A stretch of DNA of 64,000 nucleotides from an uncultured virus (IMG/VR IMGVR_UViG_3300009838_000017) (Duplodnaviria > Heunggongvirae > Uroviricota > Caudoviricetes), in IMG/VR virus record IMGVR_UViG_3300009838_000017, positions 1-64,000 of that record; one strand, 5' to 3'. This document shows positions 3,919 to 50,487 of the stretch, one piece after another; positions within the stretch are counted from its first letter, which is position 1, and each line of letters begins with the position of its first letter. The notes beneath the pieces are model-generated. The model saw only the letters and a program-made list of their open reading frames with translations. It did no database searches and was not told where the DNA came from. Both the position numbers and the translations under genes were made by a program.

Positions 3919-5361
3919 TCAGGGAACGGGGAACCACTGAGCTAGAGGGTCTTCCCTCTTGATTCCGGCACATTCGTCACAGAGTCCGATTCGGGTCGTC
4001 TTGTTGGGGCTCATGCACCGGCATTGACTGATCACCGTTCCGCACTTGCCGCAAACCTCTGTGTAGTGCTCAGACGCAATCTTTGCGCCACCTGCCCGGC
4101 AGATGGTCCGGAAGAACTCCTGGGTCCAGGGTCCGAGGGCTCGGGGACCCTTGAGAATCCAGAGCTGGAAACACTCTGCAAAGGCTTCAACAGGGGAGGT
4201 TCGACCATAGTCTGTGATCTCCTCCACCAGAACGGTCTCACCCTCGCTGCCCATCAGGAGGTCCAGGTACTTGCTACGGTCGAAGGTCCTAGCATCCCAG
4301 GAGACAACCGGTAACTTGGCAAGCTCCCTGAAGCGAAGCTCATCCGACTCATTCCGAGCTGCCTGAAGGGCCACCTGGAGAACCTTGGCCTCATCGTTCA
4401 TCGCTCTGGGATTGTCCGGGTCCACCTTGGGAATGACAGCATCAGCGAACCGATGGATGTCCTCCTTGGTGATCTTGATGCCCTTGGACTCCATCACCTC
4501 ATCCCAGTAGGACCGAGCTTGACCAGGGAGGTCTCGGAAGTAGAACCGATGCCCGATCTCGTGGGTCACCGTCCGGATGGTATCATTCCCTGCCATCCCA
4601 AGAGGGAGGAGGGTCAGGGTATCCGTGGCTGGGTTGTACATCCCGTTGGTGAGGGCTTCCTTCTGGTCGAAGTTGATGGTGACTGAGAGGCCCTGAACAG
4701 CCCCAGGGAAGCCTGCCTTCGAGACCCCTGAAACCCACTTCTTGAGCTGGTTCAAGGTTTTGTGGAGGTCGTCCTCACTGTCCTCATCCCGACCATAGTT
4801 CTCAAGGGTGACCCGAATCCCTCCGACATCCAGGGTCTCTACCGGGTCGTGCCGCTGAAGGGGTCCGCCTCCCTGAGAGGCCAGATACTCATCCAGGTCC
4901 TTGAACGCCTTCGTAGCTGCCACCTGGTAGCGCTTGATGTTACGCTCCCGCTCATGCTTGAGCTTCGAGAGTTCCGGGATGTTCCCGTACATGGTGGGGA
5001 ACAGAAGGCTCAGCGTGTACTGGAAGTCCCAAGCAGACTTTGACACCTCACGCTCTAGGTACCCCTGGTCCTTCTTGTCCTTCTTGGGAAGGACCACCTT
5101 GTAGACCCAGTCAGTGAACCCATCTCTGAAGACTCGGAAGAGCTTCTGAGCCTCAAGGAACTGGCTCTTAGCTTTCTCACTGGTGGAATCATCGTCCCAA
5201 GAGAAGTCCAGGGGAATGTCCCTGTAAATCTTGGTCATGACCCGGAGGTCCTTCTTCCACTGCTCCAGCTTTGCCTTGTCAACCACGGCAGCAAACCGAC
5301 GGGCAACATTGGAGGCGATCCGGTATCTCAGGGCCACAGCTTTGATGATCGGGTCCATCAC
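3919..5361 (-). CDS. Zincin-like metallopeptidase domain protein with N-terminal leader and C-terminal Cys cluster
   Basis: HEIGH plus distal EAFAECF; C-terminal CGKC..CRC..CDEC; N-terminal AVALRY/ASNVARRF leader. Confidence 0.75.
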   Translation of the reverse strand: MMDPIIKAVALRYRIASNVARRFAAVVDKAKLEQWKKDLRVMTKIYRDIPLDFSWDDDSTSEKAKSQFLEAQKLFRVFRDGFTDWVYKVVLPKKDKKDQGYLEREVSKSAWDFQYTLSLLFPTMYGNIPELSKLKHERERNIKRYQVAATKAFKDLDEYLASQGGGPLQRHDPVETLDVGGIRVTLENYGRDEDSEDDLHKTLNQLKKWVSGVSKAGFPGAVQGLSVTINFDQKEALTNGMYNPATDTLTLLPLGMAGNDTIRTVTHEIGHRFYFRDLPGQARSYWDEVMESKGIKITKEDIHRFADAVIPKVDPDNPRAMNDEAKVLQVALQAARNESDELRFRELAKLPVVSWDARTFDRSKYLDLLMGSEGETVLVEEITDYGRTSPVEAFAECFQLWILKGPRALGPWTQEFFRTICRAGGAKIASEHYTEVCGKCGTVISQCRCMSPNKTTRIGLCDECAGIKREDPLAQWFPVP

Positions 5362-5415
5362 AAGCCACAGTGCATCGAAGGACTACTCCCCTTATGTGTC
5401 CACCTCTGTAAAGAC

Positions 5416-5682
5416 GTGATCGAGGTTGTGCTTCAACACCTGGAAAAGCAAGGTCTCTACTACGTGGAGATCCAAGGCATCCCAGGGGTCAAACCCATTG
5501 TGGCCTCAAGGGCAATGAGTCTTGCAAGGGCAGAAAGAAGAAGGGCGGAGATTGAATCCGCCCTTCTTGCATACGCTCAGCCGGGTCACCCTGAAAGTGG
5601 ATCCCCAGCAGCTTCACGCTTCGAGAGGGTGCTGACTCACGACTCGATCCCGCCTACTTGTCATCCCCAAGAATGTGGCTGA
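5416..5682 (+). CDS. Hypothetical protein with SRFERVL motif
   Basis: 88-aa ORF filling the gap between two minus-strand genes. Confidence 0.6.
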   Translation: MIEVVLQHLEKQGLYYVEIQGIPGVKPIVASRAMSLARAERRRAEIESALLAYAQPGHPESGSPAASRFERVLTHDSIPPTCHPQECG

Positions 5683-6817
5683 ACCGGTCCCCACCAGCAG
5701 GTGGGATGGCCTTCCACGAAGTCATGAAGGATTCCTCGACAAGTTCGATGCACAGGTCATCGATCCTGGCCCGGTCAGGCTGCTTTGGAAGGGACGAGGT
5801 CTTCATCAGCTCTTCGAGTTCCTTGTCCTGTTGCTCCGCCCAAGCCACCAGCTCGAAGTAGTCCCAGGCCCCAGCCCGGATCCGAAGAAGCTCTTCCGCA
5901 TCCGGGCGACGAACCAAGACCTTGCCCTCGGTCAGGATCTCCCGACACATTCGGAGTAGGCGAACCAGGTGCATCCCATGCTTCGTGTCGTAGCCGAACT
6001 TCTCTTCGAGCTTGGCCCGGTCCTGGTTCCGGTTCTTCTTCCACTCGTTGTACTGCTGCCACTCTCGAAGGCGAGCCGTGTACTGGCGCTCCTTGTCTAG
6101 TAACTCGATGAAGTTGGTAGACAGGCCCAGGCTGTTTGCTGCTGCCTGCCAGACCTTCTCATCAGTCTGCTCCCAGGACCACTGGGTGATCTCGGTCAGG
6201 CGACGGTAGAACTCATCCTGGATGGCCTGACGCATGGCGGGCTCGATGTTCTCCAGCTCATGCCAGTTCCACTCGTCCAGGCGCTTCTTGATGGCAGAGT
6301 TGGCAGCCGCAAGCTGGTCCCCAGGAATGACTGTCCGCTCGGGAAGTCCGAACTCTCCCCTCGAAGGGGCACCCGTAGGTGGGTTCTTCAGCCACCGGTA
6401 GTGGGTGTTGATCCTCTTGAGCTGAGAAACGGCGTACCCAGAGAAGGTGTGCTTGGCCTTCCGGCTCAAGAACAGGTGCCGATGGTCGATGAGTTTCTGA
6501 CCCAGTTGGCTCGTCAGAAGGTGATCCTCAGGGTCCGTATGCAGCAACTCCAGCACGTTCGGGTTAGCATCCGAAGCCAACCGGAGGAACTTCCGGATCT
6601 CGAAGATGCAGAAGTCTGGCTCCTTCTGGTCCGCCTGCTCGAAAACCTGAGAGAATCCGAGGTAGTAGGTCTTCGGGGCGATGCAGATCCCTCGGATGTC
6701 CACATCCGAGGTTGGGAGACTCGTCCCGTAGGCATGGCTTCCGTGCCTCGTGAGATAGAGCGTCCTGTCAGGGAGCCAGGTGAGATTCCCCTTGTACTCG
6801 TTCCAATCGAAGTTCAT
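5654..6817 (-). CDS. Pol-beta superfamily nucleotidyltransferase (RlaP/YcgL/NrdC.11-like)
   Basis: GSHAYG..TSDVDIRG signature, NPNVLELL, and GYDTKHGMHLVRLL helical C-domain. Confidence 0.85.
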   Translation of the reverse strand: MNFDWNEYKGNLTWLPDRTLYLTRHGSHAYGTSLPTSDVDIRGICIAPKTYYLGFSQVFEQADQKEPDFCIFEIRKFLRLASDANPNVLELLHTDPEDHLLTSQLGQKLIDHRHLFLSRKAKHTFSGYAVSQLKRINTHYRWLKNPPTGAPSRGEFGLPERTVIPGDQLAAANSAIKKRLDEWNWHELENIEPAMRQAIQDEFYRRLTEITQWSWEQTDEKVWQAAANSLGLSTNFIELLDKERQYTARLREWQQYNEWKKNRNQDRAKLEEKFGYDTKHGMHLVRLLRMCREILTEGKVLVRRPDAEELLRIRAGAWDYFELVAWAEQQDKELEELMKTSSLPKQPDRARIDDLCIELVEESFMTSWKAIPPAGGDRFSHILGDDK

Positions 6818-6842
6818 GTGACCTCTTACACCGGAGGGCGGT

Positions 6843-7121
6843 ATGGGAAACGTGTTGTCTCGACGGTTCTACCAAGTTTTGCTGGTAGCTAGCATGGACA
6901 GGGACAAAAGAGCCGAGGAAGTTCGGGATTCCGACGGCAATAAGGTCCCCGCCTGGGCCATTCACGAGAGGTCTCTTCTCCTGACCGAGGTCAACTTGGA
7001 GCGGGAAGCCAAAGGGCTTCAGCCGGTTGGGGCAGAGGACATCAAGAAGGGTGAGTCGGTGGGGCACCCCGAGTATGGTCGGGTCCTAGCCGATCACTGT
7101 GCCTGTCTGGCTTCGGGGTGA
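6843..7121 (+). CDS. Hypothetical protein
   Basis: 92-aa ORF filling the gap; start could be 6894. Confidence 0.6.
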   Translation: MGNVLSRRFYQVLLVASMDRDKRAEEVRDSDGNKVPAWAIHERSLLLTEVNLEREAKGLQPVGAEDIKKGESVGHPEYGRVLADHCACLASG

Positions 7122-7456
7122 AGAAGGTAGAAGCACCCAGGTAGGTAGGGGTGCGGCTTGAATCCCAGCTTGTTCACGAGCATCGAAGGGAGTCGAGGGT
7201 TCAGGACACTCTCGACGTACAGCGATAGGTCCGGGTGATCGACCTTCAGACGGGCCACCAACCGGGTGAGGGTTCCGCTTCCCGGCTTCCGTGCCTCCAT
7301 GTTCGCCAGGTCGAGGAAGGTACGCTCGACCCCATCGATCTTCCGTTGGCTGATCCTCACGTAGAGACCAGAGAACCCTGGCTCTCTGACCCATCCGTTG
7401 TGGGGCCAGGAGACCTTGGCCTGAGCGATAAAGGCATCAAGCGTTGGGAGTCGCAT
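7094..7456 (-). CDS. Putative GNAT-fold protein
   Basis: LDLANMEARKPGSGTLTRL resembles GNAT motif A; C-terminal NP...KLGFK. Confidence 0.5.
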   Translation of the reverse strand: MRLPTLDAFIAQAKVSWPHNGWVREPGFSGLYVRISQRKIDGVERTFLDLANMEARKPGSGTLTRLVARLKVDHPDLSLYVESVLNPRLPSMLVNKLGFKPHPYLPGCFYLLHPEARQAQ

Positions 7457-7467
7457 GAATCGACCTC

Positions 7468-7785
7468 TCAGCAGCCTCGACTTATTTGGTACCTAGGGAG
7501 GGAGTCCGGCCAGAGAAGGCTGCAACAAGGGCAGCGCCCTACCGAGGTCCTTCTGGTGCCGCAAGAACAGATGCCTGCCTCTGAGAGCACTTCGACTGCC
7601 AGTGGACGAAGCTCCCTCAACTTGGCGACACTCAACTCGTTGTTGAGTCCTGAGAGTATAACCAGGTCTGAGGCGTCAGGCAGACTGTCGATCACCAGGT
7701 CCGGGGTACTTGGCATGAGCGGGGTCCCTAGTCTCCCCTGAGCCTCATGGAGAGCCTGTTTCAGTTGATCCTTGTCACTGACCAC
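7468..7785 (-). CDS. Hypothetical protein with C-terminal Cys motif
   Basis: GTG start overlaps the upstream gene's end; CSCG...CPCC. Confidence 0.55.
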   Translation of the reverse strand: MVSDKDQLKQALHEAQGRLGTPLMPSTPDLVIDSLPDASDLVILSGLNNELSVAKLRELRPLAVEVLSEAGICSCGTRRTSVGRCPCCSLLWPDSLPRYQISRGC

Positions 7786-8065: not shown

Positions 8066-8070
8066 GGTCC

Positions 8071-8098: not shown

Positions 8099-8106
8099 CC
8101 AGGCGC

Positions 8107-19691: not shown

Positions 19692-20171
19692 CTACTCTCC
19701 CTCACGAGAAGCTGTCTTGATCGCCTCCAAGGAGAGGGTCCCAGTTGGACCCTCGATGATGTCCCCATCCAAGGGCCAGCCCTTCTGAATGGCAAGGCGA
19801 GCCACCTCACGCCCTCGGACGAAGGCGTCAGCAATGGCCTCTGAGACCCCCTTCGAGAGACCCGTAGCATCTCGAATCTTCTTGGAGATTCTCTCGACCT
19901 TGTGTTCCTTGGTTTCCTTCTGCTCGTACTTGAAGGATTCCTTGAATCTGGAGGCAACTCTCCTTGCCATCAGCACATCCTGGAAGTCCTGGAGTGGGTC
20001 TGAGGCAGACTTCCCCTTCAGGTACTCCGAGGGTGGTTTCTTGCAAGACTTCGAGCCTGGATTGACGTGCTTGCAGTAGATGCTCCAAGCCGTTGCCCAA
20101 GCCTGTTCCTCACTGTAGGAAGGGTTCTTGTCCTTTACTTCCTCGTAGTATTTGTCAACCGGAGTCGGCAT
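19692..20171 (-). CDS. Hypothetical protein with ChaB-like N-terminus and internal ARRVASRF motif
   Basis: EEQAWATAWSIY resembles ChaB; possible virion protein. Confidence 0.65.
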   Translation of the reverse strand: MPTPVDKYYEEVKDKNPSYSEEQAWATAWSIYCKHVNPGSKSCKKPPSEYLKGKSASDPLQDFQDVLMARRVASRFKESFKYEQKETKEHKVERISKKIRDATGLSKGVSEAIADAFVRGREVARLAIQKGWPLDGDIIEGPTGTLSLEAIKTASREGE

Positions 20172-20185: not shown

Positions 20186-20863
20186 TCAGTGAAGCCGAAG
20201 GGACTTCTTGATGTAGGCCAGTTCTTCCTTTCCGAGAGGCTTGCCGTCCTTGCGCTCGATCCAGAGGTGATAGGTGGTGTTGTTCCCCGAGCTGTAGTCT
20301 TCCTCAGCCTGGGAGATGATCCAGTCACGCTTCCCGTCCGGGCTGCTGGAGGACCACTCAAGCCAGGACTTGTCATCCACCGCCTTGAGGACCTCTTCCA
20401 GGGTGTCGTAGGGCTCCGAGCCCTCCTCTTCCCACCCACGATCCTCAGCGTCACCCTCTTCGGCCGACTCCGGGGAGACAACCTCATAGGTCATCTTGTA
20501 GGTGTAGCCCTTCCAAGCCTTCTTGGCCTTCTCATCAAGGCCCTCAAGGTCATCGTCATCCAGGACCACGATGTTCGTGGCTGCTTCCTTGGAATTCCCC
20601 TCACCAAGGTAATCTGGGTTGGCATAGAAGTGCTCTTGGGTCACCTTGCCACGGGTGAGGATCTGGGTCTTGTGCGCCACCTCGGTCCCACGGTCCTTGT
20701 AGTAGGCATCCATGGTCCGCTTCGTGTGGGCATATTCAGGGGAAGGCCAACCAGCGTTGGCGAGCGCCTGCTGGAACTCCTTGAAGGTCACTTCCTTCAA
20801 CCCAGCAGTGCGGGTCGAGGCAGCGTAGCGGGACACTACGTTGGCGATGATCGAAAGGCTCAT
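20186..20863 (-). CDS. Acidic hypothetical protein with ANVVSRY leader
   Basis: 225 aa; AGGAG RBS. Confidence 0.75.
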   Translation of the reverse strand: MSLSIIANVVSRYAASTRTAGLKEVTFKEFQQALANAGWPSPEYAHTKRTMDAYYKDRGTEVAHKTQILTRGKVTQEHFYANPDYLGEGNSKEAATNIVVLDDDDLEGLDEKAKKAWKGYTYKMTYEVVSPESAEEGDAEDRGWEEEGSEPYDTLEEVLKAVDDKSWLEWSSSSPDGKRDWIISQAEEDYSSGNNTTYHLWIERKDGKPLGKEELAYIKKSLRLH

Positions 20864-20949: not shown

Positions 20950-23277
20950 TCACGCCTCTGCTCGCTGCTCCCGAAGAGTGATAACCCCCTGCCCACCATT
21001 CACGGTGTCCTCAGTCACAAGGATCCGCTCGATAGTCTCGTTGCTGGGGGTGTCATAGGCAAAGGTCTTCAGGGTCTTCTCGACGATGCTCCGAAGTGCC
21101 CGTGCCCCAGTTGGGCGCTTCTTGGCTTCCCGAGCGATGGCCCTCAGAGCATCCTCCGTGAAGTCCAGGCAGACACCGTCCATCTGGAACAGGCTCTTCA
21201 CCTGCTTGATGATGCTGTTCCGGGGCTCGGTGAGAACCCGAATCATCTCATCCTCGGAAAGCTCGATGGTCGTGGTGATGACCGGGAGACGGCCCATCAT
21301 CTCGGGAATGATGCCGAACTCCATGATGTCGTCTTCGTTGGCAGCCAGGTAGGAGGCCGACAGGTCGAGCTTCTTCTTCTCTGTGTTGGCCCCAAACCCG
21401 AGACGAGCCGACCCCTTGTTCACCCTCTGGGCCACGATGGGTTCGATCCCAGCAAAGGAACCAGCACAGATGAACAGGATGTTGGTAGTGTCGATGGTGT
21501 CATATGCCATCATCATCCCAGCTTTTCCGCCACCACGGGGGACGTTGACCCTCGAACCTTCGAGGAGCTTGAGGAGGGACTGCTGGACCCCCTCTCCCGA
21601 CACGTCTCGGTACCCAGCCCTGTCCCGGCCAGAACCTCGGGCGATCTTGTCCACCTCATCGAGGAAGATGATCCCCCACTGTGCCCGCTCGATGTCGCCC
21701 CCAGCATCCAGGACGAGCCCCTGAAGAAGGGTCTCCACGTCATCCCCGACGTAGCCAGCCTGGGTCAGCCGGGTGGCGTCACCAACATGGAAGGGGACCT
21801 GAAGCATCCGAGCGATGGTCCTGGCAATGTGAGTCTTGCCCGTATTATGGGTCACAGTGAAGTCGTCAAGCAGGTAACGGTGGTCCCCATCGAGGACAAA
21901 CCCGAAGTATTCCTCCGGGGGTAGGTCACGGGTTTTGAACCCTGTCCGAAGCACATTCTTGATGGCTTTCCGAGCAAGGGCCTTCTTCCTCTCAACCTTG
22001 GTTGGAATCTCAGCCACGTCACCAGAAATGAACATCCGGTAGTAGATGCCCTCCACCCCAGTCTGGCACCCCTTCACACATGGCTGAGGATAGCAAGCAA
22101 AACCAAGGCTTCTAGCGATGAAGGCCAGGTCATCAACAAGCTCTTTGGACTTGTTGATGAAGTCGAAACCACACCCGTCCTCATCAAGGGATCCATCAGT
22201 GTCCAGGAGCCCCGCAAGGATTGCCAGTCGATCTGCTCTGGAGGATACCTTGTAGCAGTGAGGGATGAACTTGGACTCACCCGTCACTTCCAGAAGATCC
22301 AGACCCGCCAACCTCTGTGCAATAGGATTGCGAGAAGCCTCGTCTTGGAGACCACCTGGACCCTCTACCTTACACAGGGCATAGGAGGGGCACTTCTCCT
22401 CATTGTAGTCGTAGATAGAGACGACCAAACCGAAGTTGGCCGCCTGCCTACGAGTTTCCTCAAGGATTTCTGGGTCTTCGGTGGTGACTCGGGGAGTCAC
22501 ACCGAGTGACCCATCACCAAGCAAGACGCCCAGAAAGTATGGGTCCAGTGGTAGCTCCTCCTGTGCTTTGAACTCGACAGGTACACGAAACAGCTTGTGA
22601 ACTGACTTCTGAGTCCTTGACCAACCAAGCCAATCACGAAGGGGTACATCCTTGACCTCGTTTACAGGACGGTACCCAGAACCACCGTTGTAGCAAGTAC
22701 GAACCAGCGTCAGAATGTGCCCCCGGTTGACCACCCAGGGCTCACCCTTGAGGGGCACAATCTCAACCATTTCCTCCACCCCCCTATGAAGTTCCAGCAC
22801 ATTTCGAGGAGTGGAGTCAGGCCCCATGAGTTGGTCCCCAACTTGGACGTTCTCCACCGCTTTCAGGGTACCATCATACATCAAGACAAGCTGACCCTTA
22901 CGATGGCAACCCGATGGCCCAAGGAGCAAGATGTTGCTCTTCTCGATCTCGACCAGATCGATGCCATCCTCAGGCTTGGCGTCCCGGAGCTTCCGACGCT
23001 TGAAGTGGTTGTACACTGCGATTGCAATGTCCACCTTGGCCTGGTCTTGCCCGATCACGTACTGGTCTAGGTAGTCCCGGATCTCCCTCGGCTTGCGAAG
23101 GGGATCCTCTTTCTTCTGCTCGAAGCCACCCCTCTTTGCCCCAGCCTTGATTTCGTTGGCTGCCGTCTCCACACAACGGTTGCAAATGAAGGGGCCAGCC
23201 TCAGAGTCGGCAGCAATGATGTTCTTGACCTCGTTCCGAGGACGGCCACAGAACGAGCACTTGATCGGGCTAGGCAT
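20950..23277 (-). CDS. clpX: ClpX AAA+ unfoldase containing an intein (mature ~420 aa)
   Basis: CSFC..CNRC zinc domain, KSNILLLGPSG/TGKT, GYVGDDVE, FLDEVDKI, RDVSGEGVQQ, LGF loop and TGARALRSI. Confidence 0.93.
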   Translation of the reverse strand: MPSPIKCSFCGRPRNEVKNIIAADSEAGPFICNRCVETAANEIKAGAKRGGFEQKKEDPLRKPREIRDYLDQYVIGQDQAKVDIAIAVYNHFKRRKLRDAKPEDGIDLVEIEKSNILLLGPSGCHRKGQLVLMYDGTLKAVENVQVGDQLMGPDSTPRNVLELHRGVEEMVEIVPLKGEPWVVNRGHILTLVRTCYNGGSGYRPVNEVKDVPLRDWLGWSRTQKSVHKLFRVPVEFKAQEELPLDPYFLGVLLGDGSLGVTPRVTTEDPEILEETRRQAANFGLVVSIYDYNEEKCPSYALCKVEGPGGLQDEASRNPIAQRLAGLDLLEVTGESKFIPHCYKVSSRADRLAILAGLLDTDGSLDEDGCGFDFINKSKELVDDLAFIARSLGFACYPQPCVKGCQTGVEGIYYRMFISGDVAEIPTKVERKKALARKAIKNVLRTGFKTRDLPPEEYFGFVLDGDHRYLLDDFTVTHNTGKTHIARTIARMLQVPFHVGDATRLTQAGYVGDDVETLLQGLVLDAGGDIERAQWGIIFLDEVDKIARGSGRDRAGYRDVSGEGVQQSLLKLLEGSRVNVPRGGGKAGMMMAYDTIDTTNILFICAGSFAGIEPIVAQRVNKGSARLGFGANTEKKKLDLSASYLAANEDDIMEFGIIPEMMGRLPVITTTIELSEDEMIRVLTEPRNSIIKQVKSLFQMDGVCLDFTEDALRAIAREAKKRPTGARALRSIVEKTLKTFAYDTPSNETIERILVTEDTVNGGQGVITLREQRAEA
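21844..22908 (-). mobile_element. Intein with LAGLIDADG endonuclease (355 aa) in the ClpX Walker A
   Basis: Starts CHRKG and ends VTHN, +1 Thr; LGVLLGDG and LAGLLDTDG motifs. Confidence 0.93.
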
Positions 23278-23324: not shown

Positions 23325-24272
23325 CTACTTGCCGAGAAGCCGCTTCAGGTGGTCTGGCAGCTCCACCGGCTCAGTCTCGGGAACCTTTCCAGTGGTCATG
23401 TAATCCTCGAACTTGTCGAGGACCGCCTGGTCCCCTTGCCCGGTGATCCCGAAGTTGGTCAGGGCGAACAACTCAGCGAAGCTCTCCCCCTCGGTTCGGC
23501 TGTACCTGCTGGTCCACCACTCGGGTCGGTCGAAGTCTATGCCCGGCTTCCGCTTGTAGTCGTACCGGTGACCCAGCTCATGTACGATGATGTAGTCGAA
23601 GGCTCCGTAGGAACCACGGGTCCGCTTGAGGACAGCGGGGGTTGCCCTGACATAGAGGGTGTCCTCGCTCGACTTGTATTTCCCGCCCGAGGTGCCTCGG
23701 AAGTCGGAGGGTCCCGCCAGGGCAACCTTGAGTCCCCCGGCCAGGGCCTTCTTCCTCCAGCCCTTCAGCTCAGCGAAGACCTGTTCGAGGCTCTTGATGT
23801 AGGTGGTGAGCTGGTCTTCGGAGAACCCCGAGATGTTCAGGTAGGTGTTGGCCCCAACCTTCATCTCCTTGGGCACGACCTTCCCGCCCTCCTCGGAGAA
23901 GAGCTTGACTAGGGTACCCAACTCTTTCTGGATGTCCGACCAGGCTGCTTCGATGGTAGGGCGAAGCCGCTCCGGATCCTGCTGCTGACCGAGGCCGAAC
24001 TTCAGGAACCAGTGGAGCTTGTTCACCTGGTCCTTGAGCACCTTCCCGCCCTTGGGGGTCTTGGTCCCAAGGAAGTGGAAGTTGGCCTCCAGCCACTCAG
24101 CTACATCCTTGCCCTTCTTGGCCTCCAGGGTGCTCCCTAGAAGGTCGCCCATCATTCTCTGAAGCTGGTCAGCCAGACCAGCTACGAAGCGTCTGGCAAC
24201 CCGTGTAGCCATCCCAGGGGGTGGGTACCCTAGGATGTAGCGCTCAAGGACGGTGAGGGTGATCGGGTCCAT
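23325..24272 (-). CDS. Zincin-like metallopeptidase domain protein with ATRVARRF leader
   Basis: HELGH and ESFAELF; similar layout to 3919-5361. Confidence 0.75.
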   Translation of the reverse strand: MDPITLTVLERYILGYPPPGMATRVARRFVAGLADQLQRMMGDLLGSTLEAKKGKDVAEWLEANFHFLGTKTPKGGKVLKDQVNKLHWFLKFGLGQQQDPERLRPTIEAAWSDIQKELGTLVKLFSEEGGKVVPKEMKVGANTYLNISGFSEDQLTTYIKSLEQVFAELKGWRKKALAGGLKVALAGPSDFRGTSGGKYKSSEDTLYVRATPAVLKRTRGSYGAFDYIIVHELGHRYDYKRKPGIDFDRPEWWTSRYSRTEGESFAELFALTNFGITGQGDQAVLDKFEDYMTTGKVPETEPVELPDHLKRLLGK

Positions 24273-28028: not shown

Positions 28029-28386
28029 TCAGAATCCTCTCGAACCTACTTGGGTGCGGCCCACTCGGGGGAAGGTACCTTGAGTCCAGCTCCCAGTCCT
28101 CAAGAGAGTCTCCCTCATCATAGGGGCTATCTACTTGAATCTGGTAGACCTTACCCCTGAAGCCTCGGAGCTTTTCCTCTTTGGTGTGGGCGAAGAATCG
28201 AATTTCTCCGCCAGACTTGAACCGCATGAAGTCCTGACCCTCCTGTTGGAGGAGGGCATTGGCTACCGCCTTGCGAGCCTCACCCTTGATCCAAAGGGCT
28301 CGGCTCGTGTGGTGAGCGGTCACAATCACCCGCTCACCACGATTGGCGGCCGAGATGGCTTCATGCAGCATCCTGGCTTGTTTCAT
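28018..28386 (-). CDS. Hypothetical protein, possibly a degenerate P-loop/terminase-like fragment
   Basis: GGEIRFF...EKLRG; ends SRFERILNED. Confidence 0.55.
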   Translation of the reverse strand: MKQARMLHEAISAANRGERVIVTAHHTSRALWIKGEARKAVANALLQQEGQDFMRFKSGGEIRFFAHTKEEKLRGFRGKVYQIQVDSPYDEGDSLEDWELDSRYLPPSGPHPSRFERILNED

Positions 28387-33542: not shown

Positions 33543-33543
33543 C

Positions 33544-41171: not shown

Positions 41172-43931
41172 CTACACCTGGATCTGGAACATCATGTCCT
41201 GAACAGCTCGACTTTCATCCATCGAGAGGCCCTTGTCGTTGGCCCCATGGAACGTCTCGTGATTCAGGATGCGTTGTGTCGGCCAGTGGACGGCTGCCAG
41301 GAAGGGTGCGAAAAACGCTCCGTCTCGACGCTTGAGGCAGTCGAAGAGCACGGTACCTGCTTTTCGGTGGTCCTCGTTCAGGTAGGTGGTGGTGATCACG
41401 TCCGCTGAGCGCTCAGCTTCGTTGGCATAGGAGAGAGCCCTGAGCTTGTAGCGGCCCTCCATCTTGTCAGCGTAGTCCTTGCCGTCTCGGTTGATCTGGA
41501 AGAGCAACAAGACTGGGACCTTCTCACCGTGGTTGAAGTGAAGGGCGAGCTTCTTGGCATCCCGTAGGACTGAGTTCAGCTCGATGGTGTAGTCCTTACC
41601 CCTCTTGCGCTTCCTGGCCTCAACCAGGCCACCGTGGTCGATGACCAGGAGGTGGATCTCCTCCTGCTGGTGCCGGAGTTCCGCCTGCATCTTGATGTCA
41701 TCGGTGGTGACATCCTCATCCGGACCCCAGACATCGAAGGAGCCATACTCCGGGTTGTTGCAGAAGTCCTTGATGACGATCTGGTAGAACGCCTCCTCTT
41801 CAGGAGTCAGAGTTCCAGCACAGACCTTGTCGTAGTCGAGAGGCTTGTAGCCCATCTCCTCGAAGATGGGGTTCTCCGAGTGGATGACGTAGATTTTCTT
41901 GCGGACCTGCTCGTAGGGCATCTCCAACGTGACGTAGTAGACGTTGGAACGGTACCGAGTAACGAGGTTGTAGCACCAGTTCATGGCAAACGTGGTGTTG
42001 TGACTCACGATGTCATTCACCACGAAAGAGTGATGTTTCGGAACAGATAGATCGTAGGTCATCTCCATTCCACGACGGGTGACTGACTTGACCTGCTCCC
42101 AATCCAAGTCCCCATCAAGGGCATGATTGAGGAGGGTGTCCCCCGGTTGAGAGAACTTTCTAGCCCACTCAAGAGTAACTGTTGGACGGTCCTTAGCGAA
42201 CTTGGAGTAGCGATAGTACCCCCGTGACATGGGTACTTTGCGGTCATCTGGAAGAAATACCGACGGAACTACCCTCCCGTCGGTATCTGGAAGCCGACCC
42301 CACAAGACTGCAAACCTGGAGTCTTTGCCCACCACATGGATGGTCTCCACGAACTTTCGCTTTGAGTGGTTGGTGACTACCCGCACCGTGTAGAACGTGT
42401 AGGGCTCACCTTTGTAGGTAGTATCTACCTGGGTGACTGAAGACTGGATACCCAATCGCAAAAGGAGGGACTGGATGTCTGAGCACAGAGTCAAGCTCTT
42501 GGAGGCATAGGTGATGTCATTTCGACGACACGGGGTAGCTCGATCACCCATCTCGTAATCTCCGGTGCAGCATGACCCATCTGTTGACCACAAGGCCCCC
42601 ACTAGGAGGGCTACTTGATTCTCCGGTAAGCCAAACAACTCATTGGGGACTCGCTTGTCCCCAGCACCAAGACCCCAAAGTCCCAGTGAGTCCAGGAGCA
42701 ATCTGACAGGGGACACCATCTCCGAGTTCCCAACTCCCGTGCTGTGGCTCACACGAATGCAAGGAGCCCGGTCGTTTGAAAACTCATCTCTGAACGAAGC
42801 TGTGACGTAGTCCGCAGAACCCTCCTGGAGGCCCATCTCAACGAGGCACTCCTTGAAGTCATCTCGAATGTGCTCATTGGATGCCGTGAACGAGATGTAC
42901 TCCTTGAAGGAGCCGTCACCGAGAAGATAGCCGACGACCTTCACCTCTGCATCTGTGAAGAGTGATGTCTTTGCGGCCACCCGCATCTGACGAGGTACCG
43001 CTACGAAGTCACCTTCATGCAAGTCACCAAGTTCTTTCCACCCAGAGGGGGTGAAGAACTTGTGGTTGCTTGTAGCCCCAACCCTCCGACCGGACGAGAG
43101 ATTGAGGTCAAACACCTCACGAACCCCATTCTGGACCAGATGGGAAGCAGGGGCAGGGAGAAGGTTGAAAGTCTCACCTTCTCGGTCCAAGGCAGTCACA
43201 ACGGGGAGGTCACCAGAAGCGTACAGCTCGGAAAGGCAACGCCTGGTACCTGTCCGGTGGTCAAAGACAGTGGCATCTCCAGGAAGGCACTTCAGCTCAC
43301 CTGTGAAGGCAGCGTGAAGCCAGAGTTCACCCTTCTTGATGCCTCGAATGACCTTGTCGATGTTGTTGAGTCCGCAGAACTTGCCCCAGGCGAGAGCCTT
43401 GTTCGACTTGGCGTCCAGGTACTCATCCCAGACAGCCTGCCCGTCTTCCCGGATGTTCCCCTGGAGACGGGAGTTGTGCTCGTACACGAGAAGCTGATGG
43501 GCACTCTGGGTAAAGTGCAGGATCCCATCCCGAAGGCCCTGCTTCTTCTCATCCCCGATCACGAGGCCCTTGGCGATGATCTCCTGGGCCTCTTTGAGGA
43601 TGGCTAGAGCCTTGATCTTGTTCTGTTCCTCGACCGTCGTGCTGAGAAGGTGGGCGTAGTTCGTCCGGATGTACGCCGTGACCCCATCAAAGTCCTTGAG
43701 TCTCTCCTGAGCCTCGTAGTCCTTCTTGGCTTCAAAATAGTCCGCTACCGTCTGCCGGGCAGGAAGTTCGAGCCTTTGATGGAAGTAGACCTTGGCAAAG
43801 TCGAAGATCCTCTGATCGGCAGGTTGGGTCCACTCAACCTTGGAGGCCAAGAGCTTCTGGAAGTTGGAGACCAGGTTCTCTTGGGTGATGCCCCCATCAA
43901 TGTCGAGAACACTTCGCAGAAGGCCCTTCAT
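41172..43931 (-). CDS. dnaB: DnaB-like replicative helicase containing an intein (mature ~488 aa)
   Basis: GIKKGEL..AAFTGELK/TT, TLEM, LLVIDH, QINR and ERSADVI motifs. Confidence 0.88.
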   Translation of the reverse strand: MKGLLRSVLDIDGGITQENLVSNFQKLLASKVEWTQPADQRIFDFAKVYFHQRLELPARQTVADYFEAKKDYEAQERLKDFDGVTAYIRTNYAHLLSTTVEEQNKIKALAILKEAQEIIAKGLVIGDEKKQGLRDGILHFTQSAHQLLVYEHNSRLQGNIREDGQAVWDEYLDAKSNKALAWGKFCGLNNIDKVIRGIKKGELWLHAAFTGELKCLPGDATVFDHRTGTRRCLSELYASGDLPVVTALDREGETFNLLPAPASHLVQNGVREVFDLNLSSGRRVGATSNHKFFTPSGWKELGDLHEGDFVAVPRQMRVAAKTSLFTDAEVKVVGYLLGDGSFKEYISFTASNEHIRDDFKECLVEMGLQEGSADYVTASFRDEFSNDRAPCIRVSHSTGVGNSEMVSPVRLLLDSLGLWGLGAGDKRVPNELFGLPENQVALLVGALWSTDGSCCTGDYEMGDRATPCRRNDITYASKSLTLCSDIQSLLLRLGIQSSVTQVDTTYKGEPYTFYTVRVVTNHSKRKFVETIHVVGKDSRFAVLWGRLPDTDGRVVPSVFLPDDRKVPMSRGYYRYSKFAKDRPTVTLEWARKFSQPGDTLLNHALDGDLDWEQVKSVTRRGMEMTYDLSVPKHHSFVVNDIVSHNTTFAMNWCYNLVTRYRSNVYYVTLEMPYEQVRKKIYVIHSENPIFEEMGYKPLDYDKVCAGTLTPEEEAFYQIVIKDFCNNPEYGSFDVWGPDEDVTTDDIKMQAELRHQQEEIHLLVIDHGGLVEARKRKRGKDYTIELNSVLRDAKKLALHFNHGEKVPVLLLFQINRDGKDYADKMEGRYKLRALSYANEAERSADVITTTYLNEDHRKAGTVLFDCLKRRDGAFFAPFLAAVHWPTQRILNHETFHGANDKGLSMDESRAVQDMMFQIQV
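41997..43289 (-). mobile_element. Intein with LAGLIDADG endonuclease (431 aa) in the DnaB Walker A
   Basis: Starts CLPGD and ends VSHN, +1 Thr; TSNH block B; VGYLLGDG and GALWSTDG motifs. Confidence 0.93.
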
Positions 43932-44897: not shown

Positions 44898-46637
44898 TCA
44901 GCCCCGAGCGTCTTCTTTGATGGAATGCAGCAGTTCCTTGAGGTCACCTTCACCACGCTCGAACTTCAAGGCCCCAACGGCTGCCTCACCGATGATTTGG
45001 TCGATGAGCCCCTTCTTCCGGCGGAGCTTTTGGACGACCTTGTGGTCGATGGTCTCACTCTTCTTGCCCTTCTGACCGGGCCTTCGAGCGATGAGGTGAA
45101 TTGCCAGAACGTTCTGGTGGGGAGACCCGATTCGGATCATTCGGCCAAGGAGTTGGACGTAGTTCCCCCAGCTCCAAGGGGTATCGAAGAAGACCATGGC
45201 GGAGGCCGCCTGAAGGTTGATGGCCTCACTCCCGGCGTCAGTGATGAAGATGACCGAGACCTTGCTGTTGAGGTCCTGGAACTGGTCCTGGGCCTTCTTT
45301 CGGTCAGCCGCCTTGTTCACCTTGCCGGTGATGGCAACACTCCTGATCCCTTCCTTGGCTAGGATCTTCTGAAGGCGTCCCACCAGCTTCTCGAAGCGGG
45401 TGTAGATGATGACCTTCTCACCGTCGAACTCCTCGGTGATGAGGTCCACCAAGGCAGACTCTTTCGAGCTTCGACCCTCGAAGGCATGGTCCCCAACCTC
45501 GTCACCATCTTCAAACTTGAGAAGCCCGAGAGAGTCACAGACCTCCTGGGCGTAGATGAGGCTCGTGAGTTGCTTGGTATCAGTGTAGTCCCGAAGCTCT
45601 CCGTCACCCATCTCCAGGATTCCGGCAAGAGCCTCAGCGTACTTCTTATCCTCAACTGGGGACAGTTCGCAGGTGATCTCTCGGGTGGTGAGAGCCGGGA
45701 GTTCAGTAGAGACAGCGTGCTTGGGTCTCCCGTAGAAGAAAGGGTCGATGGTCTTTCGGAAGTGCTCCAGGTTTCGGTACCCGACCACGATGGGAATCTT
45801 GCCCCCTCCCTTGACCCGCTGAAGCTCGGTGACGCAATAGGTGTCGAGGAAGGCACTCTTGGTGCTGAAGGTCTCCGGTCGGATGACCTTGTAGATGCCG
45901 AAGCCCTCCATCAAGTTGTTTTTGAGGAGGGTTGCCGTGAGACCCCAGACCTTCTTGGCCCTCTGGGAGAGGAACTTGCAGGTCTGGTGGGTCTTCGTGC
46001 TCGGGTTCTTGAATGCCGTGGCCTCATCGAAGATGACCGTGAGCTTCGGGAATCGAAACGTCATGGCATCGAGAAGACCTCGACCCAAGGTCGGCTGGGT
46101 ACCTGGCTTCGACCCAGGAGGGGGAGCCTCCTTCTTGATCCCATGGTCCCAGTCTCGGACCAGGCCGTGGTAGTTCACGATCAAGACTGCTGGGCCTACA
46201 TGCTTCTCCCACGCCTGGTAAGCAGCAATCCGTTGCTGAACAGTACCCGAGGCAATGAACCACTTCACCCCAAGGGTGAACTTGTCGATCTCCGAAGCCC
46301 ACTGCCCGATGGCGGACTTGGGACAGACCACCATGACCTTGTACTCTGGGTCCCGATCCCAGACGTAGCAGAGGGCTCCAAGAGCCTGGACGGTCTTCCC
46401 TAGGCCGGTCCCATCCCCCAGAACCATCCGGGAGACCACCAAGAGGTGGTAGATTCCTTGGGCCTGGTAGTACCTGAGCTTGAGTGGCTGGAGGGTTCCG
46501 TCGAAACCCGTGATGGTCTCACGGAGCATCTTGGTCGGCTTCAGCTCTACGGTCTTGCTCGCTCGAACCTTCTGGAGCTGCTCGTAGACCTGCTTGAACC
46601 GTTCGGCGGGCGAAACAGTGGGTGTAGCTTCGGGCAT
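44898..46637 (-). CDS. SNF2-family helicase/ATPase
   Basis: GDGTGLGKT, FDEAT, LTAT..N, AGSEAINLQ and QLLGRMIRIG motifs. Confidence 0.9.
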   Translation of the reverse strand: MPEATPTVSPAERFKQVYEQLQKVRASKTVELKPTKMLRETITGFDGTLQPLKLRYYQAQGIYHLLVVSRMVLGDGTGLGKTVQALGALCYVWDRDPEYKVMVVCPKSAIGQWASEIDKFTLGVKWFIASGTVQQRIAAYQAWEKHVGPAVLIVNYHGLVRDWDHGIKKEAPPPGSKPGTQPTLGRGLLDAMTFRFPKLTVIFDEATAFKNPSTKTHQTCKFLSQRAKKVWGLTATLLKNNLMEGFGIYKVIRPETFSTKSAFLDTYCVTELQRVKGGGKIPIVVGYRNLEHFRKTIDPFFYGRPKHAVSTELPALTTREITCELSPVEDKKYAEALAGILEMGDGELRDYTDTKQLTSLIYAQEVCDSLGLLKFEDGDEVGDHAFEGRSSKESALVDLITEEFDGEKVIIYTRFEKLVGRLQKILAKEGIRSVAITGKVNKAADRKKAQDQFQDLNSKVSVIFITDAGSEAINLQAASAMVFFDTPWSWGNYVQLLGRMIRIGSPHQNVLAIHLIARRPGQKGKKSETIDHKVVQKLRRKKGLIDQIIGEAAVGALKFERGEGDLKELLHSIKEDARG

Positions 46638-46816
46638 CAGGCCACTTGATACACCGGATCCTGAGCCTTTACCGACCCTGTGAGCCGCAACCCGGATTCT
46701 GTTGGAGATGCCTCGCTCAGGGTGGTGACTACTTCATGGAGGTCTTCGACGGCCTTCCGGAACTGCTCTGCCTCTACTTTCAGCTCAGATAGCTGCTGCT
46801 TTTCATTAGCACCCAT
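46637..46816 (-). CDS. Small hypothetical protein (59 aa, below the ORF-track cutoff)
   Basis: MGANEKQQLSELKVEAEQFRK...; GGAGG RBS; stop overlaps the SNF2 start. Confidence 0.5.
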   Translation of the reverse strand: MGANEKQQLSELKVEAEQFRKAVEDLHEVVTTLSEASPTESGLRLTGSVKAQDPVYQVA

Positions 46817-46831
46817 GATGACCCTCCGAGT

Positions 46832-47443
46832 TCACCAGAAAGCGAAGTACAGCCCGGCCTGAGGGTTGTGCTTCAGAGTCCACCAAGAAAAGGCGTAACC
46901 CCCATAGACACCGAAGTTCTTGGTCACATCGAAGCCGACCCCAGCACCAGCCGACCTGAATCCGGTGGCAAGGTTGAGGTTCAGGGACTTCCAGTAGAGA
47001 AATTCCCAAAGAAAACCGACATCAACAGCTTCAGCAGCGGTAGGGCGCTCGAAAGCGTCTACGAAGAGGAAGCTCCCAGCAAACTTGGGCCGGAATCGGA
47101 ACCCCCAAGTGGGGGGCTCTTTCTTGGCAACTACGAGGTCCACCTTCCCAGTGGCGGTCACCTCGTAGTTGCACCAGCTCATCCGAAGAGTGTAGGGGTG
47201 GGGCTCAGCCCCGGAGTAGTAGACCCGGCCATCCTGGTCCACCACGATGTTGACTGGGTCCAGTTTGAAGGTGGGTTGGGTGGTCTGCTGGCACTTCTTG
47301 TCCTTGAGGAGCTGGACGAAGACCTTCAGGTCCTCAGGAGGGACACAGGTTGACCCTGCATCACAGGTCCCCTGGGCCATGACCGGGGAAGCCCCGAGCA
47401 AGAACCCAAGGACCGTCAAGAGTGCCAGGATCCGAGCCATCAC
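46832..47443 (-). CDS. Secreted protein with C-terminal outer-membrane beta-strand signature
   Basis: Signal peptide (ILALLTVLGFLLGASPVMA); amphipathic strands ending GLYFAFW. Confidence 0.65.
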   Translation of the reverse strand: MMARILALLTVLGFLLGASPVMAQGTCDAGSTCVPPEDLKVFVQLLKDKKCQQTTQPTFKLDPVNIVVDQDGRVYYSGAEPHPYTLRMSWCNYEVTATGKVDLVVAKKEPPTWGFRFRPKFAGSFLFVDAFERPTAAEAVDVGFLWEFLYWKSLNLNLATGFRSAGAGVGFDVTKNFGVYGGYAFSWWTLKHNPQAGLYFAFW

Positions 47444-48336
47444 CCCTCCGATCTGGCGAACAAGGAGCGCTGACCTGTGGTCTCCTTGTCTTGGAGCTTG
47501 GACCGGAAGTCACCCCACTCCTTGCCGAACTTCTCGTGGAGCTTGAGGAGGTCCGTACAAGCCTTGCCCATGGTCTTGAGGCACACGTCCACATCCACGC
47601 AATCCTCGAACGAGGAGGCTGCCAGGGGGAGCCCGATGGCATTGTGGCGGACGATGTCTGCCAGGTCGTGAGCTTCCTTGGCAAACTCCCTCTGGGCCTT
47701 GGCATACTTCTCCCACTCTGGATCTGGTCCGAACCCAGAACGGGTTGGCTCAGCAGCAAGCCAACCACCGGCTGAAATGGATCGCTCGATCTCATGAGAG
47801 GCGTTGCTTGCCGACTCGTACCAGTCATCACAGGCACTCTTGAGGGCATCAAGAGACGGAGCCACGTCCGTCTTGAAGAGGTGCTGGACCATGACCGGCT
47901 TGAGAATCTTGGTCCCAACCCCCGAAGACTTCAAGGCTGCACTCCCGAGCGTGACCAGGACCTTCTGGAGCTTGCTGATCGGAGCATCACTCTTGTAGGT
48001 GCTGTAGGCCCGTAGTGGGTGGCCCTTCTGAGCAGCCTTGATCAAGTTCACTGCCTGGGTCTGGTACCTCTGAAGGCCCTTGGGGCTGACCCCGAGCTTC
48101 TCCAGACCAGCCGGGATGCCGTCCACCGCCTTGGCGAGGTCCGCCAGGGCCGACTTGGCTGCACTCTCATACCGCTTGGAGGTGGTGATGAGCCCAGCAA
48201 TAGCAGCATCAGCCGACTTGGTGGCGTTGTAGGCTGCCGGGTAGTCGTTGACATCAGCCACCTTGGTTGAGGAGGCAAACCTGTCCTTGACTCGGGCGGC
48301 AATGAACTGATCGAGAGGATTGAGTTCAGGTTTCAT
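47440..48336 (-). CDS. Hypothetical protein with PLDQFIAARVKDRFA leader
   Basis: 298 aa, helical. Confidence 0.75.
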   Translation of the reverse strand: MKPELNPLDQFIAARVKDRFASSTKVADVNDYPAAYNATKSADAAIAGLITTSKRYESAAKSALADLAKAVDGIPAGLEKLGVSPKGLQRYQTQAVNLIKAAQKGHPLRAYSTYKSDAPISKLQKVLVTLGSAALKSSGVGTKILKPVMVQHLFKTDVAPSLDALKSACDDWYESASNASHEIERSISAGGWLAAEPTRSGFGPDPEWEKYAKAQREFAKEAHDLADIVRHNAIGLPLAASSFEDCVDVDVCLKTMGKACTDLLKLHEKFGKEWGDFRSKLQDKETTGQRSLFARSEG

Positions 48337-48345
48337 GACGATCCT

Positions 48346-48624
48346 TCAGGCCCCGACGGCCTTGGCTGCTTTCTTCAGCTCTTCCATCGAAAGCTCTTCG
48401 AGGACGACGCTAGTGTAGTTGTCTACCCCGTATTCCTTGGCAGACGAGCCAGAGAACATGATGGTGTGCTTGCCACCACGAAGATGCTTGTTCCCGATGG
48501 GCATCCGCTTGTAGATAGCCATCAGGAGCTTCTTCTTGTCCTTCTCCTCGGTATCCTTGGCTGCAAACCGGGCTTTGACTCGGGAGGCGATGAACTGATC
48601 GAGGGGGCTGGAGCTGGGCATCAT
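48346..48624 (-). CDS. Small hypothetical protein with PLDQFIASRVKARFA leader
   Basis: 92 aa; leader duplicated with the downstream gene. Confidence 0.7.
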   Translation of the reverse strand: MMPSSSPLDQFIASRVKARFAAKDTEEKDKKKLLMAIYKRMPIGNKHLRGGKHTIMFSGSSAKEYGVDNYTSVVLEELSMEELKKAAKAVGA

Positions 48625-49196
48625 CCACCATACTTCTTCAGAAGATCATCAACCTTCTGAGCAGGTACACCAGAGTTGTCTTTGACCGTAACCGCAATCA
48701 CGCTTGGAGTGACCACGATGACCTGGTCCACGTCCTTGTTGGTGACCCCATCTGGGAGAACCACCTCGATGGGCTTGGTCTCTCCGGGAGGGGTGAAGAC
48801 CACCGTCTTGGGGTCCGAGAACAACCCAGGCTCCTGGATTGGAACGACCACTGCCTGAGTATCACCCTTCGAGTCTGGCTTCCCGATGGGGATGAGATTC
48901 CCATCCTTGTCCACCCTCTTGGGGTCCACTGTGTTGGCAATCTCAATGGTCTTGGACCCGTCAGCGGGCTTCTTGCCCAGGAGCCAACCAAGGAGCCCAC
49001 CAACCTGAAGCTCCTTGAAGCCCATCGAGATGAGAAGGATGGCCCCCACCACGACCACCACAGCCAGGATCACCCCAAGGGTCTTGGGACTGAGCCAGCG
49101 GATGAAGTCCCAGAGCTTGCCCATGGTAGCCTTGAAGGCTTCCCAGGTGCGTTCTCCGAAGGACTTCTCGGTCGGGGCAGGGGTCGGATCAACCAT
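48621..49196 (-). CDS. Single-pass membrane protein
   Basis: TM segment TLGVILAVVVVVGAILLISMGF followed by a soluble Pro/Val-rich domain. Confidence 0.7.
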   Translation of the reverse strand: MVDPTPAPTEKSFGERTWEAFKATMGKLWDFIRWLSPKTLGVILAVVVVVGAILLISMGFKELQVGGLLGWLLGKKPADGSKTIEIANTVDPKRVDKDGNLIPIGKPDSKGDTQAVVVPIQEPGLFSDPKTVVFTPPGETKPIEVVLPDGVTNKDVDQVIVVTPSVIAVTVKDNSGVPAQKVDDLLKKYGG

Positions 49197-50487
49197 GGAG
49201 CACCATGAACAGGTCGTACATCGGGATCCCAGTGATCACCGACGCCTGCTTCAGTGTCATTGAACACCGAATCTCAGCCAACGAGGCCGACTTGTTGTTC
49301 GAGTCGTACTCCTCCGACGCCTTGATGAGCGCCAGGTGAAGCCAGGAAGGCTCATTGGTCAGAGCATCGGCCAGGGCTTGGATGGCTTCCGAGGCCGGGT
49401 ACTTCAGACCACCACCACGCATCCGGGTCAGGTTCTTCGGGCGACCCTCGGAAATCTCCCAGTTGAGAACCCACGGGATGAACCGCTTCTTGAGGTTCTC
49501 CACCGTGGAATCTGACAACTGACAGTCTTTCCCGTTGACACGGACGAAGAAGTCGTAGCTGTCCGCCCCGTCCTTGAAGGCCCCCTCCGCCTTCCGACGC
49601 TGGATCTTCTCCTTGCTGTACTTGGTGTAAATCTCAACAACGCTCTTCCTCCCTGCGATGGAGGGATCCTCGTCATTGAGAAGGCCGGTTCCAACCAAGA
49701 TGTCCTTGAGAGCGGCCCCCCCAGAACGAGGGAGCTTCTTGATGATCTGATCGGTTGGGCGTCCACCAGGCCAAGCGATGAACTTCTTGGGGGGCTTGGG
49801 CTTGGAGCCATCAGCCCAGCCGGTACTCACCGACTTGAGATACTTCGTAGCGATCTTGGAGATGTTCTGGGACAGAGGAACGTCCACCCAGGAGACCTGC
49901 CAGTCCTCCATCATCTTGGTGAACATCCCCTTGTCGGTAGGGATGGTTCCAGCGCTCTCCCCACGCTCCTTGATTGCGAGGAAGATGTGCTTGGAGTCGG
50001 TCTGCCCGTAGAGGGTCCAGATCCGGTGCCCTGGGTAGTAGGTCTTCTCCCAGTAGTATTCAGGAACCGAGACGAACTTCCACTCAACCCCAGCGGGGGG
50101 CGAGTTGCCAGACCAAGCCTGATCGAAGGTCTGACCCTCCATCACGAAGTCTGGCTCAGGTGCCTTCGGAGGCTCCCTACGAGGGGGTCGAGGGGCTGGT
50201 TCGGGAGTCCAGGTGGCCCGACCCTTCCCCTCCAAGATGTCCTTGGCAACATTGATCTCCACCATCTTCGTGTGGTCACCCCCACGATCCGGGTGGTTCT
50301 CCAAAGCCTTTGCTCGATACGCCTTGGTGATCTCCGTTGGAGTTGGGTTGGACCCAGGAGGGAACCCCAGGATGCTCTTGGCCTGCTCCAAGGACATCGA
50401 GAGGAGAAGGCGTGCGTACCGGTCTTCAAAGGAAAGTCTTGCCCAACTACGGGCGACCTTCTGAATCAGAGGGAGATCATTGTGCAT
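49189..50487 (-). CDS. J-domain (DnaJ) protein
   Basis: ILG.....EITKAYRAKALENHPDRGGD...M.EINVA.DIL; N-terminal QKVARSW leader. Confidence 0.85.
   Translation of the reverse strand: MHNDLPLIQKVARSWARLSFEDRYARLLLSMSLEQAKSILGFPPGSNPTPTEITKAYRAKALENHPDRGGDHTKMVEINVAKDILEGKGRATWTPEPAPRPPRREPPKAPEPDFVMEGQTFDQAWSGNSPPAGVEWKFVSVPEYYWEKTYYPGHRIWTLYGQTDSKHIFLAIKERGESAGTIPTDKGMFTKMMEDWQVSWVDVPLSQNISKIATKYLKSVSTGWADGSKPKPPKKFIAWPGGRPTDQIIKKLPRSGGAALKDILVGTGLLNDEDPSIAGRKSVVEIYTKYSKEKIQRRKAEGAFKDGADSYDFFVRVNGKDCQLSDSTVENLKKRFIPWVLNWEISEGRPKNLTRMRGGGLKYPASEAIQALADALTNEPSWLHLALIKASEEYDSNNKSASLAEIRCSMTLKQASVITGIPMYDLFMVLHG

Follow-up and report, generated by a model that had tools for sequence, protein, structure and literature searches.

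The sequence analyzed here is a 64,000-nucleotide stretch of DNA from an uncultured virus of the Caudoviricetes (positions 1 to 64,000 of the IMG/VR record IMGVR_UViG_3300009838_000017), hereafter the window. Seven of its genes carry a copy of the same short basic peptide, which we call the tag. An earlier note on this DNA had quoted seven copies of the peptide and five short K/R-x-A strings behind it or between domains, and we located all of them on the minus strand. The window is the first part of a 129-kb fragment that matches, with one mismatch, positions 174176-303337 of a 407,078-bp IMG/VR record (G001), classed there as complete, i.e., the genome of a 407-kb jumbo phage. Both ends of this record (1-220 and 406864-407078) consist of about three copies of a 79-bp unit, and its completeness call as "direct terminal repeat" may depend on this array. 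Near-identical DNA was found in wastewater and digester metagenomes from several studies. For comparison, we used G001 together with four related genomes (G002-G005; 363-513 kb), chosen by the likeness of their tail tubes among 80 loci listed. Genes were called by a simple script (465, 402, 688, 624, and 561 in the five genomes), and gene starts are therefore approximate.

Table 1. Tag-related features of the window (nucleotide positions in the window)
Start	End	Strand	Feature	Tag core	Remarks
3919	5358	-	479-aa zincin-like HExxH peptidase	5293-5310	N-terminal tag
19692	20171	-	159-aa two-domain protein	19944-19961	Internal tag
20186	20863	-	225-aa protein	20825-20842	R-T-A site 20804-20812
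20892	20901	-	Match to a structural-gene promoter-like element		Score 9.1; 38 nt ahead of the start of 20186-20863
23325	24272	-	315-aa zincin-like HExxH peptidase	24186-24203	Atlas leads 0.89, under the 0.9 mark
24272	24532	-	86-aa protein		Second tag type, H-D-Y-D-R ... T-T-A; absent from the earlier note
47440	48336	-	298-aa protein	48277-48294	K-V-A site 48256-48264; family unassigned
48346	48624	-	92-aa protein	48565-48582	
49189	50487	-	432-aa J-domain protein	50443-50460	

The tagged genes of the window differ in how the tag is combined with the rest of the protein. The 479-aa peptidase has a weaker tag copy just ahead of the core and a Cys-rich C-terminal module behind a K-I-A site. 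The 225-aa protein is composed, in this order, of the tag, R-T-A, domain 1, a K-E-A joint (20582-20590), and domain 2 (the coordinates of R-T-A and K-E-A were counted from the sequence); domain 1 is found alone with the tag in G003, and domain 2 alone without it in L344. In the 159-aa protein, the internal tag has K-S-A (20004-20012) ahead of it and K-E-S behind it, and domain 2 of this protein forms a tagged gene of its own in G002. The J-domain protein has a paralogue at positions 124488-125711 of the genome, where an internal tag lies between K-H-A and K-E-A. The tag of the 92-aa protein is helical in a low-confidence model built from the single sequence (mean pLDDT 60). A Pfam search of the seven window proteins named DnaJ as the sole family, and PHROGs gave only matches of unknown function. 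A ClpX-like ATPase with a Hint/LAGLIDADG insertion lies between tagged genes (20950-23277), and a DnaB-like helicase (41172-43931) contains an intein (41996-43290) that is cleanly absent from related strains, in two other runs.

A conserved peptide on unrelated proteins

To assess the distribution of the tag, we searched the five genomes with sequence profiles. A profile seeded on the seven window copies alone gave 14, 17, 5, and 5 N-terminal matches in G002-G005, whereas 2.5, 3.6, 2.1, and 1.4 were expected by position and 0-3 were obtained in each of five shuffles per genome. Leave-one-genome-out profiles, whose consensus is L-[IAV]-[LAS]-R-V-[AV]-x-R-[FY], identified 13, 14, 17, 10, and 8 N-terminally tagged proteins in the five genomes. 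These profiles are not fully independent, because the training sets contain orthologues. The earlier note had set enrichment at N-termini relative to shuffled proteomes as one of the tests of its proposal, and the enrichment is clear: 8-17 matches per genome versus 0-1 in ten shuffles each. An unseeded search for patterns at N-termini ranked R-V-A first (77 observed versus 24.5 expected). A last profile, for which the five genomes together served as training set, identified 70 tagged proteins with bodies of 39 families. Elsewhere it had one N-terminal match in Tunturi 5, one in phage G, and none in 120 kb of I3.

Orthologues retain the tag across the five genomes. At identical tag residues, the codons were identical in 168 of 553 cases, when 183.5 were expected from codon usage. 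Codons are thus no more alike than usage predicts, and what is conserved is the peptide, not the DNA. The tag corresponds to a basic amphipathic helix of 10-12 residues (mean moment of 0.57 versus 0.29). It differs from secretion signal peptides, which have a hydrophobic h-region: none of the 70 tagged proteins has a hydrophobic or transmembrane stretch of 19 residues.

The bodies behind the tag had been described as otherwise dissimilar. This does not hold for the two metallopeptidases of the window, which are homologous (24% identity over 108 aa, E 0.002) and belong to one family of 10. Furthermore, the leaders of the adjacent 298-aa and 92-aa proteins are near copies of each other (68% over 22 aa). 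Hence, the seven window copies do not represent seven independent acquisitions. The idea of a portable leader is borne out in that the tag is found on unrelated bodies, but it is not just a leader, since there are internal and C-terminal copies too, the latter with one to eight residues behind them.

Tagged proteins span 88-697 aa, and 14 of the 70 have an HExxH motif. When 25 of them were searched against families, 22 matched none. The bodies that could be named include a J-domain, a topoisomerase IB, and a fusion of HD and CCA-adding-type domains. The topoisomerase IB gene (G001 120354-121415) lies directly behind the terminase gene and is tagged in four of the five genomes, with a weaker form of the tag in the fifth, which makes its product a candidate for packaging in the virion.

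Pieces of the respective phage's major capsid protein (45-135 aa, 41-56% identity) were observed in small genes outside the head module, several per genome (G001 342822 and 339812; G002 283931; G003 220848, 222714, and 462580; G004 105633; G005 42960). These are possibly decoys or assembly modifiers. In the tail region of G000 (positions 78269-84433), five genes of about 400 aa each follow one another in tandem, and their starts are related.

The head protease, its candidate cut site, and an upstream element

The head module of the phage lies outside the window. In G001, PHROGs names the terminase, the portal, the head protease, and the major capsid protein. Phage G gp27 is the only solved relative of the latter found by sequence (E 1e-60), and capsid relatives were found in phage G, cluster C mycobacteriophages, E3, and Tunturi 5. 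Matches of both capsid protein and protease extend to cluster C mycobacteriophages, Rhodococcus phages, Erwinia jumbo phages, Tunturi 5, and LR745208. Searches by sequence for a solved relative of the portal and of the scaffold found none.

No Pfam protease family matched the head protease (at G001 129378), and we modeled its domain from 54 sequences (pLDDT 84). The best structural match of the model was the protease of varicella-zoster virus (VZV; Z 10.2, rmsd 3.0, 117 aligned residues), together with T4 gp21 (5JBL; Z 9.4, rmsd 3.2, 127 aligned) and the protease of human cytomegalovirus (HCMV; Z 7.8), whereas the best unrelated fold scored 6.5. Foldseek was in agreement and placed gp21 first, with an E-value no better than 0.004. 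As modeled, the head protease has the fold of T4 gp21 and herpes assemblins. Residues H128, S179, and E242 (full-length numbering) are invariant in the 54 sequences, and we infer that they have catalytic roles.

The gene following the protease (at G001 131071) encodes a Gln-rich protein, the putative scaffold. The 14 orthologues listed, out of 53, have 10-23 K/R-x-A sites each, and K.A is enriched 2.85-fold over the 53 proteins at the scaffold position, with the next residue being mostly Ser, then Ala. A "scaffold plus core" set of proteins gave 1.73-fold for K/R-x-A. We prefer the set defined by position, because the "scaffold plus core" set was chosen after the motif had been seen. Sites near the start of the scaffold and just before the protease domain keep the K/R and the Ala across the five genomes while the middle residue varies, which, as far as alignments can tell, resembles the conservation of a substrate site. 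When proteins are ranked by K/R-x-A density, scaffold or head-module proteins come top in G001, phage G, Tunturi 5, and I3. There is no such enrichment in tail proteins (1.0) or replication proteins (1.06).

We then analyzed the surroundings of the tag in 73 cases, with the columns downstream of the tag left out of its score. The three residues past the tag are enriched for Ala, not for Glu, and Ala is found at +2 or +3 after the aromatic residue of the tag in 46 of the 73 cases (16% expected). A strict K/R-x-A occurs within 12 residues past the tag in 20 cases, for a background of 9.7%. Hence, the association of these motifs with the tag, which had been noted in the window, stands for the sites directly after it. 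It does not extend through the cargo bodies: K/R-x-A as a general feature of these bodies was rejected, as the motif is not enriched there (observed/expected 0.87). Internal and C-terminal tag copies are in turn preceded by a K/R-x-A in 17 of 41 cases versus 17% expected (p 2e-4), and these 41 copies include likely chance matches. Two G001 proteins, one of them the 159-aa protein of the window, have an internal tag flanked by sites on both sides.

Tagged genes also tend to have a common upstream element. We learned a 10-nt element (ATCTTCTTRT-like) from the upstream regions of 126 structural genes only, and searched for it ahead of the 34 tagged genes that have at least 30 nt of intergenic sequence before them, the other 36 of the 70 being excluded as operon-internal. 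It was present in 26 of these 34 genes, in 8 of 9 genes with the second tag, and in 61 of the 126 structural genes used for training, against 24 of 111 replication and metabolism genes and 240 of 1225 other genes. Shuffling the upstream regions of the tagged genes gave a mean of 5.1 and a maximum of 11 occurrences. We infer that the element is a late promoter.

Alternative tags in the clade and in other lineages

The second tag, Y/H-D-Y-D-R/F, ends in x-x-A and is present at the N-terminus of 13 proteins, which come from four of the five genomes. At least two different tags thus seem, from their sequences, to operate in the G001 genome. The same body can be found behind either tag: in one pair, the proteins are 60% identical over 138 aa, starting right behind each tag, and in another pair, they are 26-28% identical over the full body.

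Other phages of the lineage have starts of their own. In phage G (NC_023719), M-K-R-L-I-K-K-A/S begins 24 of the 653 called genes (among them those at 28218, 35181, 178671, 244460, and 255160), with one further internal match. This pattern was written after the sequences had been seen; an unseeded search of the phage G N-termini ranked R-L-x-K first (32 versus 4.4). The bodies behind it, which are unrelated to one another (23 of the 24 were scanned), include ParB, ferritin, GNAT, SLOG, and nucleoside deoxyribosyltransferase, with three weak PARP-like matches. One tagged phage G protein shares 47% identity with a G001 protein that has no tag and starts where the tag ends, and a G004 protein with an HGT motif and the clade tag can be aligned over 31 residues with a tagged protein of phage G. 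A simple k-mer scan gave no clear promoter for the tagged genes of phage G. The ferritin-like gene of G001 (around 168800-169541), whose phage G homologue is the tagged gp346, probably has its true start some 60 codons upstream, at a tag-like R-V-A-Q-A-Y.

A related start, L-L-x-R/K-x-A, is found on about five proteins of Tunturi 5. LR745208 has a two-helix leader of about 28 residues, mostly ending in K-x-A, on 10 proteins (e.g., 20283, 351543, 389893, and 398171), and a few copies of the clade tag too. In mycobacteriophage I3 (NC_067270), two adjacent and unrelated-looking proteins (53901 and 55942) have a common T/S-A-R-E-Q-x-E-M-L start. A literature search, with subscription papers mostly outside its reach, gave no description of these tags or of a cleavage rule for phage G-type heads, and a term search of the accessible portions of PMC11924767, PMC12484599, PMC7824862, PMC7150772, PMC8570332, and PMC13282480 gave no mention of the tags.

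We also considered that the tag could mimic the N-arm helix of the phage's own major capsid protein, which looked right by eye in four lineages. For the clade tag, this idea was rejected upon cross-scoring of the profiles (p around 0.2 on its own capsid protein). The phage G tag scored p 0.02 on the G001 capsid protein and 0.04 on its own, and for the shared start of I3, represented by two sequences, p was 0.012.

A proposed address tag that is removed after loading into the head

These results can be explained if the peptide is an address tag that brings cargo into the head and is then removed, a reading to which we give a probability of about 0.7. The earlier note had proposed a sorting tag analogous to that of T4. 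The part of this proposal that gains good indirect support is that of a portable tag tied to processing by the head protease, because of the fold of the protease, the K/R-x-A motifs in the scaffold and the protease, the common upstream element, and the swapped tags. A prohead protease of the gp21/assemblin fold would, very probably, cut after Ala, mostly at K/R-x-A|S/A, a rule read off the putative scaffold and the protease itself. The helix would probably dock the protein onto the assembling core before the shell closes; a complex prediction made without alignments, in which the 92-aa tagged protein was paired with residues 1-145 of the scaffold, scored 0.33, the mark being 0.34. After closure, the protease would destroy the scaffold and, with similar likelihood, clip the tag at a nearby x-x-A, leaving the mature domain inside the head. 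Some of the cargo (the peptidases, ADP-ribosyltransferase-like proteins, the J-domain protein, and topoisomerase IB) might then enter the host with the DNA. This injection is the weakest step of the mechanism, and we put it forward tentatively.

Several observations weigh against this reading. The 20 strict K/R-x-A sites leave most of the 73 tags to a looser rule (L/I-x-A, x-x-S), and the Ala after the tag could merely extend a helix. The scaffold was assigned from its position and composition, with no family or structure match. The K-T-A of the major capsid protein is not conserved in phage G and hence provides no evidence for a cut site. When upstream regions were matched for AT content, the contrast in the upstream element fell to 15 of 21 versus 209 of 616, and among the window genes only the one encoding the 225-aa protein has a strong match to it. 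Finally, the tagged gp346 of phage G was detected in particle proteomics, as reported in parts of PMC12484599, and this supports the reading only weakly because the same particle proteome also has DNA polymerase subunits and thymidylate synthase.

The helix might instead dock the proteins at another late destination, such as the inner membrane, the DNA, the assembly site, or the tail lumen, without them ever being in the head. Basic amphipathic helices can bind membranes or DNA, and sharing a late promoter fits any late role. However, we find this unlikely, since it leaves unexplained that the tag is bordered by the motif of the scaffold and the protease, tail proteins do not share the enrichment in this motif, and some of the tagged genes are conserved parts of the head gene module. 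Somewhat less likely still, the peptide would be only an extended recognition sequence of the protease or an inhibitory propeptide, without a role in packaging. The R-V-A and K-V-A within the tag are themselves K/R-x-A, and many cargo bodies, such as those with HExxH, are enzymes. Yet the C-terminal copies, with so few residues behind them, cannot mask an N-terminal body as a propeptide would, the many sites of the scaffold are without the helix, and it is improbable that 39 unrelated folds are all inhibited by one short helix. In addition, the T4 protease is not active until the core is enclosed by the assembled shell (parts of PMC5694885), and its substrates would therefore need loading anyway.

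One could also imagine that the peptide has no function, being either a neutral passenger of a promoter-plus-start cassette that was copied between genes or a generic helical start. The upstream element common to tagged genes and the adjacent pair with near-identical leaders are what such copying would leave. This is largely refuted by the scrambling of synonymous codons while residues are kept, and it also fits poorly with the internal and C-terminal copies, with the retention of the tag by orthologues, and with the scarcity of N-terminal profile matches in Tunturi 5, phage G, and I3. We regard it as very improbable.

The address tag invites comparison with known systems. Herpesvirus assemblin proteases, whose fold the head protease resembles, cut after Ala before a small residue; the site proposed here differs by its preference for K/R two residues before the Ala, and we know of no cargo-tag system associated with assemblins. 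The T4 prohead protease cuts after Glu. The capsid targeting sequence (CTS) of T4 is a propeptide of 10-20 residues that is removed by gp21, prohead protease sites ending in Glu are of the types A-x-E and S-x-E, and core proteins are cut to short fragments (from parts of PMC5694885). The likeness lies in a short peptide common to unrelated proteins (IPI-III and Alt in T4), a protease of gp21 fold in the same genome, and a scaffold-position protein with many putative cut motifs, comparable to the fragmented core proteins of T4. In contrast, the head belongs with that of phage G (gp27) and not with that of T4 (gp23), the site ends in Ala, as read from the sequence, and not in Glu, the residue after which T4-like and phiKZ-like proteases cut, there are 8-17 tagged proteins per genome of the clade instead of four, and there are two interchangeable tags with internal and C-terminal placements. 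Moreover, the present tag is known from sequence alone. The tag would thus work like the T4 CTS without being a member of that system, given the head type and the absence of a Glu site.

In P1, an N-terminal signal of 30 residues in DarB directs a reporter into the capsid, and the signals of the Dar proteins have no common consensus (according to parts of PMC9024508). This is another N-terminal signal in a non-T4 capsid, and it differs from the present case, where one motif is common to dozens of proteins and lies beside a putative protease site. The inner-head proteins of SPN3US and phiKZ have long propeptides that are cut by the prohead protease (parts of PMC5694885). They are also jumbo phage head proteins with shared N-termini; their propeptides are mostly of more than 100 residues, cut after Glu, and found in paralogous families of another head lineage.

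If the address-tag reading is extended to the other phages, each phage G-like branch would keep the Ala site and use its own tag or tags. It may even be, at somewhat less than even odds, that the entire lineage around phage G (this clade, phage G itself, Tunturi 5, LR745208, and perhaps cluster C mycobacteriophages) has a modular cargo code, in which a conserved Ala-specific site is combined with several helical tags that can replace one another, at either end of proteins or between domains. Upon infection, the virion would then deliver dozens of fast-changing enzymes (peptidases, ADP-ribosyltransferase-like and CCA-adding-type proteins, topoisomerase IB) cut from tagged polyproteins.

The principle is already known from T4 and P1, and the added value here is the bridge to cultured phage G. 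Since cultured phages have analogous tags (24 proteins in phage G, about five in Tunturi 5), the idea can be tested with particle proteomes. If true, it would tell by which rule head proteases of the phage G type cleave, and a tag this short, for so large a capsid, would serve protein delivery, as the signals of T4 and P1 do. Which cargo large phages bring into a cell ahead of any gene expression is an open question. The tag would turn the answer into a list, by predicting which hypothetical genes of uncultured huge phages encode virion cargo.

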